Source: Escherichia phage vB_EcoP_EP32B. Taken from it: DNA of 64,000 nucleotides. The notes beneath the pieces are model-generated. The model searched no databases. It had not been told where the DNA came from and saw only the letters and a program-made list of their open reading frames with translations. This document shows positions 2,753 through 59,993 of the stretch, piece after piece; the first letter of the stretch is position 1, and every line of letters begins with the position of its first letter. Where the stretch lies: the sequence record OR544955; one strand, written 5' to 3'. The position numbers were made by a program, and so were the translations under genes.

Positions 2753-3046
2753 CTATTTTATAAAGACTTTTGACGAGGCCTGAGAAACAGTATCCCCGCA
2801 TGAAATTGGGTCGGCCATTTGAACGGCCTTTTTACCGGTGACGTATACTTTAGATGTACGAGGTTCAGTAACACCTCCATGAGTCTCGTATGGTTTTTTA
2901 ATTTCTGTATGAGGTGTTATTTGGTCTCCTGCCACTAGAACAGGAATACCGCCTGTGAACACTTTAGATTGGGAAGCATTTATTACAGTAGGAGGCCATG
3001 CTTCATGACCTGCTGTAACGCACTTGTCGTAACTTAAGCCAGACAT
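2753..3046 (-). CDS. 5.4: PAAR-repeat baseplate spike tip protein gp5.4
   Basis: 97 aa from Met [21 protein letters not shown]; matches recalled T4 gp5.4 almost along its length; position between 5.1 and 6. Confidence 0.85.
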
Positions 3047-3048
3047 TT

Positions 3049-3564
3049 TCACGGCCTCACATAAACATAGTTTCGTAATTGATGAGCCCATTTGCTCCAA
3101 TTTCCTACTATAGTTTTTGTATAAACCTTAGTAAGAGTTTTTTGTACTGGAGCCGGTGGAGGTTCTGTACCAGAGTCACTTCTAGAACCGCCTGATGAAC
3201 TTTCTTCTTGGTAGTTATAAATCATTTCAACCGTATAACTAAACACTTTACGAAGATTCTGAGGAGCTCTCCACAAATATAACTGTGTGGACTCATCTTT
3301 TGGTAAATCATCCCATGAAGATGCGGTTTCAAAATCATCATTTAATCGATATTTCAATGCGTCCGAAGAAAAGCTAAACACACTTTCATATGTTCCATAT
3401 AAACGATTACCGTCTACCGTAATGCCTTGTGTCGGTTCATAATCTGTTATATTTATTGACACTAAAGTTTCGGTTGTTTCTAACTGTGGAGTAAAAAGGA
3501 CGTCAATAGACGCCCCTTCCATGTCTTCTCCTAAGTCGGTATTTAAAGGAAGTATTTGTGCCAT
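3049..3564 (-). CDS. 5.1: hypothetical protein at gp5.1 position
   Basis: 171 aa ORF immediately downstream of gp5 on minus strand; assigned by synteny only. Confidence 0.55.
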
Positions 3565-17890: not shown

Positions 17891-17939
17891 TTTACTTCTC
17901 CTCTAGTTGTGTTACTATAGACATGTCAACTAGAGGAGA
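17890..17939 (+). promoter_or_regulatory. early promoter in inverted repeat (PeSL-like) upstream of regB
   Basis: GTTTAC, arms TCTCCTCTAGTTG / CAACTAGAGGAGA flanking GTTACTATAG. Confidence 0.5.
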
Positions 17940-17946
17940 AATCAAA

Positions 17947-18405
17947 ATGACTATCAATTCAGACGTTTTTATCCGCCGTAATAAACTCCGTCGAATCTTT
18001 GAAACGGAGTTCCGCAAAATAAATGCCGGTATAAAAGATGCTGCAAAGTCTCTTGGACTACCAGGCTTTCATATCAAGTATTCTCAACATCTCTTAGATC
18101 GTGCCATCCAGAGAGAAATAGATGAGAATTACGTTTTTGAATTATTTCATAAAGTAAAAAATCATGTTAAAGAAGTTGCAGAATTTTTATCAATGCCGGC
18201 ACGTCCAGATGTTGATGAAGATTTTGTCGAAGGTGTCGAGTATCGTCCAGGCCGTTTAGAAATAACTGATGGAAATCTTTGGTTAGGACTTACAGTCTGT
18301 CGCGAAAATCCAGCATTCAAAATGAAGACTCTTCAATGCAGAATGGCTATTATTAACAGTAAACGACTACCAGGAAAAGCTTCTAAAGCAGTGATTAAAA
18401 TCTAG
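17947..18405 (+). CDS. regB: endoribonuclease RegB
   Basis: MTINSDVFIRRNKLRRIFETEF...NSKRLPGKASKAVIKI, matches recalled T4 RegB. Confidence 0.9.
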   Translation: MTINSDVFIRRNKLRRIFETEFRKINAGIKDAAKSLGLPGFHIKYSQHLLDRAIQREIDENYVFELFHKVKNHVKEVAEFLSMPARPDVDEDFVEGVEYRPGRLEITDGNLWLGLTVCRENPAFKMKTLQCRMAIINSKRLPGKASKAVIKI

Positions 18406-18413
18406 AGGTAAAC

Positions 18414-18956
18414 ATGAGAAAAGCACTACTCGCTGGTCTATTTGCTCTTTCATTATCAGCACATAGCTCCGAGCATACTTTTAGTAATGTCCAACTCGAT
18501 AACTTGAATTATGCTTATCAGTTTGGGGAACAGTTTTCTAAGGACGGAAAATTTAAAACGCATGAAAATATGCATAAGAAAGGACTTGGATACATAATGG
18601 CCGCAATACTATGGCAGGAATCATCTGCCGGTATTAATCTTAAAGATAAGAAAGGTCACCATGCGTATGGAATGTTCCAAAATTATCTACCAACAATGAG
18701 GGTAAGAATTAACCAGCTTGGTTATAATATGACTGATGCCCAAATTAAGAAAATGCTATCTAAGCGGTCTAATTCAGCCAGATGGGCTTATATCGAATTT
18801 TCTTATTGGTTAAATATACATAACGGGGATATAAGAAAAGCTATATCCTCATATAATGCGGGATGGAAGACAAGTGCTGGAAGTAAATATGCTTCTGAAG
18901 TCCTAGAAAAGGCTAATTACCTTAAATCAAATAAACTACTGGAAATAAAAGAATGA
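18414..18956 (+). CDS. secreted lytic transglycosylase-like protein
   Basis: signal peptide MRKALLAGLFALSLSAHS; SLT-like motifs WQESSAG, GMFQ, SYNAGW. Confidence 0.6.
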   Translation: MRKALLAGLFALSLSAHSSEHTFSNVQLDNLNYAYQFGEQFSKDGKFKTHENMHKKGLGYIMAAILWQESSAGINLKDKKGHHAYGMFQNYLPTMRVRINQLGYNMTDAQIKKMLSKRSNSARWAYIEFSYWLNIHNGDIRKAISSYNAGWKTSAGSKYASEVLEKANYLKSNKLLEIKE

Positions 18957-19300
18957 CCAAAATGTTGGCTTTAATAGTTGGCTTGGTTTCATTTAGCGCT
19001 CTTGCTAATACTACATATACTGATGTAACGGAGTATACAAACAGAACGGCGTCTGATTATTGTGGTAAAAGTCAAGAGTGTAAAGTAGATTTTTCACAAA
19101 AATTGTTATATGCGTATAAAGACGGAGAAAAAGATGGGGCGTCTAGTAGGTTCAAGGCGTCTACCTTAATTAAAAGATACTATAAAAAATGGCAAATATT
19201 AGAATGCTCGGTGGCGGAACCTAAAGATAAGGCAGCATGCAATTCTATGGTGGACCGTCTAGTTGACTCTTATAATAGAGGACTTGCAGCAAGTGATTAA
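18953..19300 (+). CDS. secreted Cys-containing protein (115 aa)
   Basis: signal peptide MTKMLALIVGLVSFSALA. Confidence 0.55.
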   Translation: MTKMLALIVGLVSFSALANTTYTDVTEYTNRTASDYCGKSQECKVDFSQKLLYAYKDGEKDGASSRFKASTLIKRYYKKWQILECSVAEPKDKAACNSMVDRLVDSYNRGLAASD

Positions 19301-19760
19301 AAACTATATCAAGGGCGATATTGTCGCCCTGTTTTCTAAAGGTAATAATATTGCTCATGGGTGTAATTGTTTTCATACAATGGGCGCTGGTGTGGCAGGA
19401 CAATTAGCAAAGGCTTATCCAAAAATTTTAGAAGCCGATAAACTTCAAACCGAATTCGGAGACGAGTCTAAACTCGGGACTTATTCGGTTTATGAAAAAT
19501 ATTTTAAGACCCATAAAGCTTATTGCTTTAATCTTTATACACAGTTTGAGCCTGGACCTAATTTTGAGTACTATGCTTTAATGAATTGTATAATAGAATT
19601 AAATGAATTCGGAAAGAATAAGATAACAAAGCCTGTAATTTATATGCCAAGAATTGGTGCAGGTATCGGTGGCGGAAACTGGGATGTCATCGAAGAGATT
19701 TTAGACACATATTCCACTAAACTAGAAATTGTGATTGTTGATTGGGAACCATTATTATGA
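19293..19760 (+). CDS. macro domain protein (ADP-ribose binding/processing)
   Basis: NCFHTMGAGVAGQLAKAY and PRIGAGIGGGNWD resemble the two glycine-rich macro-domain motifs; start uncertain (GTG 19293 or TTG 19263). Confidence 0.6.
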   Translation: MIKNYIKGDIVALFSKGNNIAHGCNCFHTMGAGVAGQLAKAYPKILEADKLQTEFGDESKLGTYSVYEKYFKTHKAYCFNLYTQFEPGPNFEYYALMNCIIELNEFGKNKITKPVIYMPRIGAGIGGGNWDVIEEILDTYSTKLEIVIVDWEPLL

Positions 19761-19969
19761 ATATACATTATCCACATCCATATGACCCAAAGAATAAGGC
19801 AGTAATTATTCGTCAATGGGAACGCATTTGCCGTACTAAATGCCCAATTAATAGTCCACATGATGTAGATAAAGACTATATTGGAACATTCGTTGAATAT
19901 ACCTTTATTGATAAGAAAGGTCGTAAACAACATGTAGAAGAATATTGCTTAAAGGTTACATGGTTATGA
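19757..19969 (+). CDS. hypothetical protein (70 aa)
   Basis: ORF 19742..19969, start at MNIHYPHPYD. Confidence 0.45.
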   Translation: MNIHYPHPYDPKNKAVIIRQWERICRTKCPINSPHDVDKDYIGTFVEYTFIDKKGRKQHVEEYCLKVTWL

Positions 19970-20496
19970 GTCTTACTGCCGCCCATAACTATAAAGAACG
20001 TGGCATGGGTGTATTAGTTCTTAAACCGGCTATTGATACTCGCGATTCAAAAGGTGAAATAGTCTCTCGTATTGGTATTCGTCAGGACGCCAATATAATT
20101 ACAAAAGACATGGATATCTTTGAATTCTATAAATGGGCTGCAGCACAAAAGGATATTCATTGTGTATTTGTTGACGAAGCTCAGTTCTTAACTACTGAAA
20201 AGGTGTATCAACTTAGTCGTATTGTTGACGTATACAATGTGCCGGTAATGGCATATGGACTACGAACAGATTTTAAAGGTAATCTATTTGAAGGTTCTCA
20301 AGCATTAATGGCTATTGCCGATAAGCTTGTTGAACTTAAAGGTGTCTGTCATTGCGGTAAAAAGGCCACAATGGTAGCTAGAGTCACGGAAGACGGACTT
20401 CCAATTACAGATGGCAGTCAAATTGAAATTGGTGATACTGATAGATATGTGTCATTATGCCGGAAGCATTGGAATGATTTGACAGGGTTGTTATAA
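19960..20496 (+). CDS. tk: thymidine kinase homolog lacking the N-terminal P-loop (probable remnant)
   Basis: MVMSLTAAHNYKERGMGVLVLKPAIDTRD... aligns with TK1-family Tk from just after the GKS Walker A; in-frame stop 19924-19926 upstream. Confidence 0.7.
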   Translation: MVMSLTAAHNYKERGMGVLVLKPAIDTRDSKGEIVSRIGIRQDANIITKDMDIFEFYKWAAAQKDIHCVFVDEAQFLTTEKVYQLSRIVDVYNVPVMAYGLRTDFKGNLFEGSQALMAIADKLVELKGVCHCGKKATMVARVTEDGLPITDGSQIEIGDTDRYVSLCRKHWNDLTGLL

Positions 20497-20523
20497 ATAC
20501 TAATATCTAACCAAGAGGTATAT

Positions 20524-59074: not shown

Positions 59075-59368
59075 ATGAAAAAGTTATCATTGGCAGCAAT
59101 CTTACTTGCAGTATCATGTGCACCGGCTCCAGTTACGGCAGGTTATGATAAAGACCTCTGTGAGTGGTCAATGACTGCAAATCAAGAAGATGTTGAACAA
59201 CAAATCTTCTCTGATATCATGAACATCACTAAACGAGACCGTCCTAATATGGTTAATAAAGTTGTTGAACAACTTAAGTCTGGCGGTATCATGCAGTACA
59301 ACTATGTTTTGTATTGTGACCCTAATTTCGATAACAAAGATATCGTAACCGAAATCACAGGTGAATAA
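59075..59368 (+). CDS. sp: Spackle (sp) periplasmic protein
   Basis: signal peptide then AGYDKDLCEWSMTANQ...LKSGGIMQYNYVLYCDPNF, matches recalled T4 Sp. Confidence 0.8.
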   Translation: MKKLSLAAILLAVSCAPAPVTAGYDKDLCEWSMTANQEDVEQQIFSDIMNITKRDRPNMVNKVVEQLKSGGIMQYNYVLYCDPNFDNKDIVTEITGE

Positions 59369-59369
59369 T

Positions 59370-59786
59370 ATGATTTATTATATGCACAAAAATGCGCCAT
59401 TTAAATATGGTAAATTTCCTAATGCACAATGTTATAATATAACGCCTAATGAAAATAATAACGGATACCATCTCGGTGTAATTTTTGTAATTGTTAAAGA
59501 TAACGAAATCGTTGCCTGGGCAGATTTTAAAGGTACAACATATGATGTTAATCCTGTGCCTTTCACATATTATAATTTAATGGATTTGGCATATGATTAT
59601 AATTGGTTTAATCATGAAGGATTTGACATCTCTTATTCTAGCTATTCATTATGTCCTATGAGCCGAGCTCACGGTAAAGATGTATCATATCTTTCAATTC
59701 GGAAACGTGTAAACTTCAAACGTAGTACAGAGTATGTTGGTGGACTCTTTGTTAAAGATAATAAAATAACATTAGTTATCCTCTAA
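59370..59786 (+). CDS. hypothetical protein (138 aa)
   Basis: ORF 59361..59786, start MIYYMHKN. Confidence 0.5.
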   Translation: MIYYMHKNAPFKYGKFPNAQCYNITPNENNNGYHLGVIFVIVKDNEIVAWADFKGTTYDVNPVPFTYYNLMDLAYDYNWFNHEGFDISYSSYSLCPMSRAHGKDVSYLSIRKRVNFKRSTEYVGGLFVKDNKITLVIL

Positions 59787-59993
59787 GTGTAGGCCAAAAA
59801 GATGTTGATGTTGATTTGGACTTAACTGAAAATAACATTAATCGTATTGCTTCTGTATATTTTGATATCGATGAAAAAATTGTAGTGTGTGGATACGAAT
59901 TACCACCTGAAGAAAAGGCCGAAACAATTGAAGTCGAATTAGAAATTTCTGTTGATGACCAAATATTTAATGCATTTATGAATCGAGGTTAAA

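Follow-up and report, generated by a model that had tools for sequence, protein, structure and literature searches.

The 64,000-nt stretch of Escherichia phage vB_EcoP_EP32B DNA analyzed here (sequence record OR544955; hereafter the window) carries the Mosigvirus orthologue of T4 tk.4, or adfM, a gene that is already catalogued and a finding that is, to that extent, already known. Its product is a stand-alone macrodomain of 155 amino acids that belongs to the ALC1/TARG1/DarG-like class. We consider it likely that this protein is an early-made, orphan antitoxin-like ADP-ribosylglycohydrolase, which would strip the ADP-ribose that DarT2 attaches to thymidines of single-stranded phage DNA. The basis of this proposal in the present analysis is domain identity, fold, orthology, synteny, and the pattern of active-site residues. 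Little of this is new: the protein is in GenBank, the domain was recognized in 2006, and the anti-DarTG2 role in T4 was reported in 2025. What can be added is that an invariant glutamine occupies, throughout the T-even AdfM clade, the position where DarG and TARG1 carry their catalytic lysine, and the label "DarG-like" therefore describes the fold of these proteins and not their mechanism.

Coding region, start codon, and neighboring genes

An open frame runs without interruption from 19263 to 19760 on the + strand and encodes 165 amino acids if it is read from the TTG at its 5' end. The preliminary description had taken this entire frame as the gene; the frame is real, but its first 10 codons (19263-19292) are probably untranslated. 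The codon TTG 19263 was dropped as a start in favor of GTG 19293, since the T4 and phi25-307 products begin there and tblastn matches T4-group orthologues only from residue 11 of the 165-aa reading onward. GTG 19293, which falls at the exact alignment position of the T4 tk.4 ATG, is thus the probable true start, giving a protein of 155 aa, and the record of Shigella phage phi25-307 carries the same 155-aa product as an annotated protein. A Shine-Dalgarno sequence upstream of this codon is also kept in T4 and in 308Ecol101PP. Residue numbers refer to the 155-aa protein throughout, except where the 165-aa reading is named. The features of the gene and its immediate flanks are as follows.

18953..19300, + strand: vs (valyl-tRNA synthetase modifier), upstream; PHROG 1256 at E 1.1e-35, and T4 synteny
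19263..19292, + strand: in-frame 5' extension from TTG 19263, inside the 3' end of the vs gene
19278..19282, + strand: Shine-Dalgarno sequence GAGGA, 10 nt upstream of GTG 19293, read directly
19293..19760, + strand: coding sequence of the macrodomain protein (orthologue of T4 tk.4 = adfM); 155 aa, probable GTG start, TGA stop at 19758-19760
19757..19969, + strand: tk.3 (70 aa), downstream; PHROG 2008 at E 1.2e-41, from residue 6 of a 75-aa open reading frame, and T4 layout

The stop of vs and the start of the macrodomain gene overlap by 8 nt, and the ATG of tk.3 overlaps the macrodomain stop codon (ATGA), as it does in T4. The surrounding genes all lie on one strand and have T4 regB, vs.1, vs, tk.3, and tk as their orthologues, and the order regB - vs.1 - vs - tk.4 - tk.3 is that of T4, with the overlapping stop and start codons included. 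Given these same-strand neighbors, the earlier placing of the gene among early genes was a fair one.

Signals for transcription were also considered. A sigma-70 promoter scan around the macrodomain gene found 13 candidates, compared with 13.3 expected in shuffled sequence, and no promoter was assigned. A pattern resembling the MotA-box middle promoter (TGCTTYA, a spacer of 11-13 nt, and TANNNT) occurs 12 times in the 64-kb window against 1.95 expected, a count that was matched by none of 100 shuffles; one such motif, at 19574-19599 on the + strand, lies within the macrodomain gene and could drive tk.3/tk. A terminator-like hairpin with an 8-bp stem, AGGGCGAT-ATT-GTCGCCCT followed by GTTTTCT, occupies 19312-19330 (+ strand) and spans codons 7-13 (KGDIVAL). 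The sequence is nearly identical in T4, and the hairpin may either follow from conservation of the KGD motif or form an RNA structure close to the start of translation.

Macrodomain identity

The preliminary description had proposed a macro-domain protein and had named the lack of a Pfam Macro hit, or a different predicted fold, as grounds for abandoning that reading. Both lines of evidence bear the proposal out. The Pfam Macro profile PF01661 matches over model positions 2-117 of 118 with an E value of 3.4e-6 and a score of 27.4 bits, above its gathering cut-off of 22 and well outside what chance would give, and the predicted structure has the fold of a macrodomain. PHROG 335, named "phosphatase", is matched at E 2.9e-66. 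Sequence searches of the PDB with phmmer retrieved six macrodomain proteins, among them BT1257, Poa1p, SCO6735, TARG1/OARD1, and the DarG macrodomains. When a profile of 66 family sequences was used, the same PDB macrodomains rose to E values between 9e-18 and 8.5e-12, whereas viral nsp3-type macrodomains stayed at 2e-4.

An AlphaFold2 model of very high confidence, built on the family alignment (mean pLDDT 95.2, pTM 0.91), shows the three-layer alpha/beta/alpha fold in which the central beta-sheet is mixed. The top Foldseek matches of this model were TARG1, Poa1p, DarG, BT1257, and SCO6735, and the closest solved folds were those of TARG1/OARD1 (E 7e-10) and Poa1p (E 3e-9). By sequence and fold alike, the nearest relatives are of the ALC1/TARG1/DarG-like class and not of the MacroD, macroH2A, PARG, or viral nsp3 types. 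Among the characterized members of this class, TARG1, Poa1p, and DarG are roughly equally distant from the window protein, and specificity for thymidine-linked ADP-ribose is therefore not readable from the sequence.

Loops and active-site residues

Two glycine-rich motifs had earlier been singled out as fitting the ADP-ribose pocket of macro domains. Both are present where they had been placed, and they correspond to the pocket loops Asn25...Gly31-Ala-Gly33 and Pro119-Arg-Ile-Gly-Ala-Gly124 of TARG1/DarG-class macrodomains. Their positions, together with that of the key glutamine codon, are given below.

19365..19406, + strand: loop 1, the substrate-binding loop, NCFHTMGAGVAGQL; residues 35-48 of the 165-aa reading, with Asn25 and Gly31/Gly33
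19542..19544, + strand: codon of Gln84, at the position of TARG1 Lys84, DarG Lys80, and SCO6735 Gln85
19647..19685, + strand: loop 2, the phosphate-binding loop, PRIGAGIGGGNWD; residues 129-141 of the 165-aa reading, with Gly122, Gly124, and Gly126

Both loops are conserved and fall, in the alignments, on the loops by which TARG1 and BT1257 contact their ligands, and an ADP-ribose binding cleft is predicted. The sequences of BT1257, SCO6735, two DarG macrodomains, and TARG1 were taken from the PDB search outputs for residue mapping. In HMMER and MAFFT alignments, Gln84 takes the place of TARG1 Lys84, DarG Lys80, and SCO6735 Gln85, and of a glutamine in BT1257; the equivalence of Gln85, Lys80, and Lys84 in SCO6735, DarG, and TARG1 comes from a published structure-based alignment (PMC9411070). 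The six-sequence MAFFT alignment shifts the "NMIGQ" stretch of BT1257 and SCO6735 by several columns, and there the HMMER alignments and the published equivalence were used. Asn25 corresponds to SCO6735 Asn27 and DarG Asn22, Gly122 and Gly124 to SCO6735 Gly126 and Gly128, and Gly126 stands at the place of TARG1 Asp125. Gly23 is the counterpart of SCO6735 Val25, the residue associated there with a water held by the backbone.

Conservation of these residues is close to complete in a set made up of the window protein and 260 family members, which includes the 150 best representatives at 50% identity: Gln84 is present in 261 of 261 sequences, and Asn25 and Gly33 are each present in 260 of 261. The distance from Gln84 to a conserved tyrosine is 9 residues here and in TARG1, 11 in DarG, and 14 in SCO6735 and BT1257; the short loop after the glutamine is shared by 157 of the 261 family members. 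At position 127 (codon 19671-19673), the window protein and 246 of the 261 members have glycine, and lysine is found in only five. T4 Tk.4 has Lys127 in its phosphate-binding loop (IGAGIGKGNWD; T4 locus 3001-3468) and is in this respect slightly atypical of the family.

Orthologues and earlier work

The protein is 100% identical to AYD79314.1 of Shigella phage phi25-307, and T4 Tk.4 aligns with it over its full length without gaps, with 129 of 155 residues identical (83%). Homologues were found by tblastn in 2,792 of 50,697 phage records, spread over many unrelated phage groups. A search of 1.84 billion representatives of 50%-identity clusters gave 1,208 relatives when the cut-off was E<=1e-30 and 9,002 when it was E<=1e-10. 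Public names for these proteins differ, ranging over "hypothetical protein", "phosphatase", "macro domain protein", "ADP-ribose binding module", and "O-acetyl-ADP-ribose deacetylase". In 308Ecol101PP, the coding sequence is annotated from an internal ATG, giving a product of 126 aa from which Asn25 is lost (retrieved locus 2981-3361).

Our literature search for Tk.4 returned only two comparative papers, from 2006 and 2021, and the HIDEN-SEQ preprint. The match of tk.4 orthologues to the A1pp (macro) domain was recorded in 2006 (PMC1524935). In the HIDEN-SEQ preprint, tk.4 was the only transposon hit to reach significance on a host expressing DarTG2, and T4 with a clean tk.4 knockout became sensitive to DarTG2; the authors renamed the gene adfM, pointed out the structural likeness to the DarG macrodomain, and proposed that AdfM enzymatically removes ADP-ribose from DNA (bioRxiv 10.1101/2025.11.20.689424). 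The suggestion, made from the window DNA, that the phage protein could reverse DarT-type ADP-ribosylation of DNA is therefore both supported and already published, because the T4 knockout becomes DarTG2-sensitive.

Proposed function and alternative explanations

We propose the following sequence of events as a probable account of the protein's role. The macrodomain gene would be expressed before replication, together with regB, vs, and tk. When DarT2 of a host DarTG2 system puts ADP-ribose on thymidines in single-stranded phage DNA, the macrodomain protein would hydrolyze the thymidine-ADP-ribose link, replication could go on, and the protein would in effect act as an orphan antitoxin. Catalysis by the T-even Tk.4/AdfM clade is what we infer from two characterized proteins. 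SCO6735 removes DarT2-made ADP-ribose from DNA in vitro, outpacing both DarG and TARG1 on the thymidine-linked form, and a water-mediated mechanism was proposed for it; its Q85A substitution abolished activity and N27S nearly abolished it (PMC9411070). PhiKZ gp104, which is likewise named AdfM, stripped DarT2-made ADP-ribose from an oligonucleotide in vitro and rescued DarT2 toxicity (PMC13309987). Because the key position in the window protein is Gln84, and because Asn25 and both glycine loops are conserved, the chemistry is more likely to be of the SCO6735 style, with Gln and Asn positioning and a water-mediated step, than the lysine-based chemistry of DarG and TARG1. Counting against hydrolysis as proposed, the protein has neither the catalytic lysine of DarG nor the Lys/Asp dyad of TARG1, and it is without the mobile loop of SCO6735, which is five residues longer and has been linked to DNA processivity (PMC9411070).

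A broader version of the same function has an outside chance of being correct, namely that the protein also erases ADP-ribose placed on nucleic acids or proteins by other defense toxins. This is compatible with the preferred account, and it would suit a family that is very large in the cluster search and whose spread over many unrelated groups in the phage records is wider than one defense system might explain. SCO6735 acts on protein substrates too (PMC9411070), and macrodomains that reverse ADP-ribosylation of RNA are reported to exist (PMC11833690). The genetic tests, however, cover DarTG2 only (bioRxiv 10.1101/2025.11.20.689424).

Protection without hydrolysis is unlikely as the whole explanation. 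The macrodomain would then be a neutralizer that binds DarT2 or caps ADP-ribosylated DNA or ADP-ribose, which would suit a protein in which the catalytic lysine of DarG and TARG1 is absent, and the phage anti-DarT factors AdfA and AdfB do work by toxin binding. DarT is also inhibited in vitro by the catalytically dead variants SCO6735 Q85A, DarG K80A, and TARG1 K84A, with the strongest effect from SCO6735 (PMC9411070). Against this, the strict conservation of Gln84, Asn25, and both glycine loops across the 261 diverse members is what would be expected of an active site and not of a surface that coevolves with a single toxin; SCO6735, an enzyme of the Gln type, is highly active (PMC9411070); and the window protein has no counterpart of the C-terminal DarT-binding domain of DarG. 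Since SCO6735 Q85A still inhibited DarT by interaction (PMC9411070), protection need not be purely catalytic. Inhibition of DarT2 by binding is thus plausible as a contribution and disfavored as the main mode.

That the protein is instead a metabolite enzyme, an ADP-ribose-1''-phosphate phosphatase or an O-acetyl-ADP-ribose deacetylase that plays no direct part in countering ADP-ribosylation of DNA, seems to us very unlikely. The "phosphatase" labels that would suggest it come from the A1pp domain name and not from assays, and turnover of a metabolite does not account for the loss of fitness that T4 tk.4 mutants show specifically with DarTG2. T4 infection has no known source of Appr-1''-p (Tpt1-type tRNA splicing), which counts further against such a role.

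We give hardly any credence to the suggestion that the protein edits marks left on host protein or RNA by the phage's own ADP-ribosyltransferases (Alt, ModA, and ModB): T-even phages encode three such enzymes and the gene is co-expressed early, but their marks are arginine-linked ADP-ribose, which is handled by ARH/DraG-type enzymes and is not a known substrate class of TARG1/DarG-class macrodomains, whose substrates are Glu/Asp esters and thymidine, and nothing in the 64-kb window ties the gene to an ADP-ribosyltransferase. In addition, tk.4 is non-essential on plain K-12 and was scored only with DarTG2 (bioRxiv 10.1101/2025.11.20.689424).

Phage background and the adfA locus

The source is a Mosigvirus-type T-even phage: the 2.6 kb around the gene are 98.5-98.8% identical to phages of this type (HY126, phi25-307, JS09, APCEc01, and others, among the 25 records listed). 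Just 3' of the macrodomain gene, in 19966-20496, a 423-bp deletion with its junction at about 19971/19972 is seen in comparison with T4 and with the best 12 of the 647 phage records matched by the junction query. It takes out tk.2, tk.1, and tk codons 1-19, including the P-loop AAMNAGKS, and joins the tk.2 start (ATG AGT) in frame to tk codon 20. The resulting fusion product of 176 aa is 99% identical to the remainder of phi25-307 Tk. Because the tk start and the first 19 codons with the P-loop are lost and the tk.2 start is fused in their place, thymidine kinase is probably inactive and the phage probably thymidine-kinase deficient.

T-even phages have layered anti-DarT factors, namely AdfA, AdfN, and AdfM. 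The window also holds a homologue of T4 61.2/adfA (gp61.2; AdfA, anti-DarT1 factor) at 59361-59992, which is split into two open reading frames in different frames. One, of 141 aa, is 60% identical to T4 residues 1-142, and the other, of 58 aa, is 66% identical to residues 156-208; relatives have a region 28 bp longer. Its C-terminal piece has arginine (NINRIAS) in place of the T4 histidine (IINHIAS), and in this it resembles the non-neutralizing RB69 allele (PMC11825919). From these reading frames, adfA appears to be disrupted in the EP32B genome and adfM intact, a combination that bears on predictions of host range among strains that carry DarTG. Mosigvirus records match the tk.4 region at 98.8% identity, whereas the best matches of the 61.2 region reach only about 95% and come from another set of phages (mobillu, moha, JK45, and others). 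The genome thus looks mosaic when 59361-59992 is compared with 17900-20500.

Comparison with known systems

T4 Tk.4/AdfM is the closest characterized relative, and it is from T4 only that the anti-DarTG2 phenotype is known. The two genes share the position between vs and tk.3, the overlapping start and stop codons, Asn25, Gln84, and the glycine loops; they differ in the start codon, which is ATG in T4 and GTG here, and by 26 substitutions, among them Gly127 in place of the T4 lysine. The Mosigvirus copies (phi25-307, JS09, APCEc01, HY126, and others) have near-identical flanking DNA, but in these genomes tk.2 and tk.1 are present and tk is intact; the deletion in the window affects all three.

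Outside phages, SCO6735 of Streptomyces coelicolor and BT1257 of Bacteroides thetaiotaomicron resemble the window protein in having glutamine at the Lys80/84 position together with the conserved asparagine. They are, however, bacterial chromosomal genes whose products are only about 27-30% identical to it. These two proteins form the Gln-type subclass of ALC1-like macrodomains, of which a long "mobile loop" is characteristic, a loop tied in SCO6735 to DNA processivity (PMC9411070). That loop is five residues longer than in DarG and TARG1, whereas the loop of the window protein has the length found in TARG1. Human TARG1/OARD1 and yeast Poa1p share the loop architecture, and TARG1 also the length of the post-catalytic loop. 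Both proteins are eukaryotic, and Poa1p has been characterized as an Appr-1''-p phosphatase; in place of the Lys84/Asp125 dyad of TARG1, the window protein has Gln84 and Gly126.

DarG, the antitoxin of DarTG2 (T. aquaticus, M. tuberculosis), has Lys80 where the window protein has Gln84. It also carries a C-terminal DarT-binding domain, whereas the window protein ends after the macrodomain (155 aa compared with about 330-350 aa). The DarG equivalog model NCBIfam NF048014 gave 30.4 bits against a cut-off of 250 and aligned only over model positions 4-146 of 338. No darT lies next to the macrodomain gene, whose neighbors are vs and tk.3. Filing the protein as DarG was rejected on three defining features, which are the score, Lys80, and the C-terminal domain or adjacent darT.

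PhiKZ gp104, described as "AdfM" (Cell Rep 2026, PMC13309987), is, like the protein studied here, a stand-alone phage macrodomain that counters DarTG2 and in which the conserved asparagine is important. It is nevertheless only remotely homologous: 23 residues are aligned by BLASTP, and the identity of about 19% comes from an hhalign alignment with a one-residue offset and low confidence near the catalytic position, which was used for overall relatedness only. Unlike the T-even protein, gp104 is of the Lys type (FPTK motif, DarG-like) and is imported into the phage nucleus. Judged by sequence, the name "AdfM" spans two macrodomain lineages of one class, and since the PhiKZ protein is Lys-type, a simple derivation of the family from DarG does not hold. 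We would put forward, tentatively and with doubt outweighing conviction, that T-even AdfM proteins are not captured DarG2 macrodomains but part of a separate and very large clade of 1,200 or more clusters at 50% identity, in which the glutamine is always present, the loop is mostly short, and ADP-ribose would be hydrolyzed without the catalytic lysine and without the DNA-gripping loop of SCO6735. If so, "AdfM" would denote two convergent phage solutions, the Lys type of PhiKZ and the Gln type of T-even phages, and the substrate range of the Gln-type clade could exceed DarT2 marks and extend, for example, to other ADP-ribosylated bases or to RNA.
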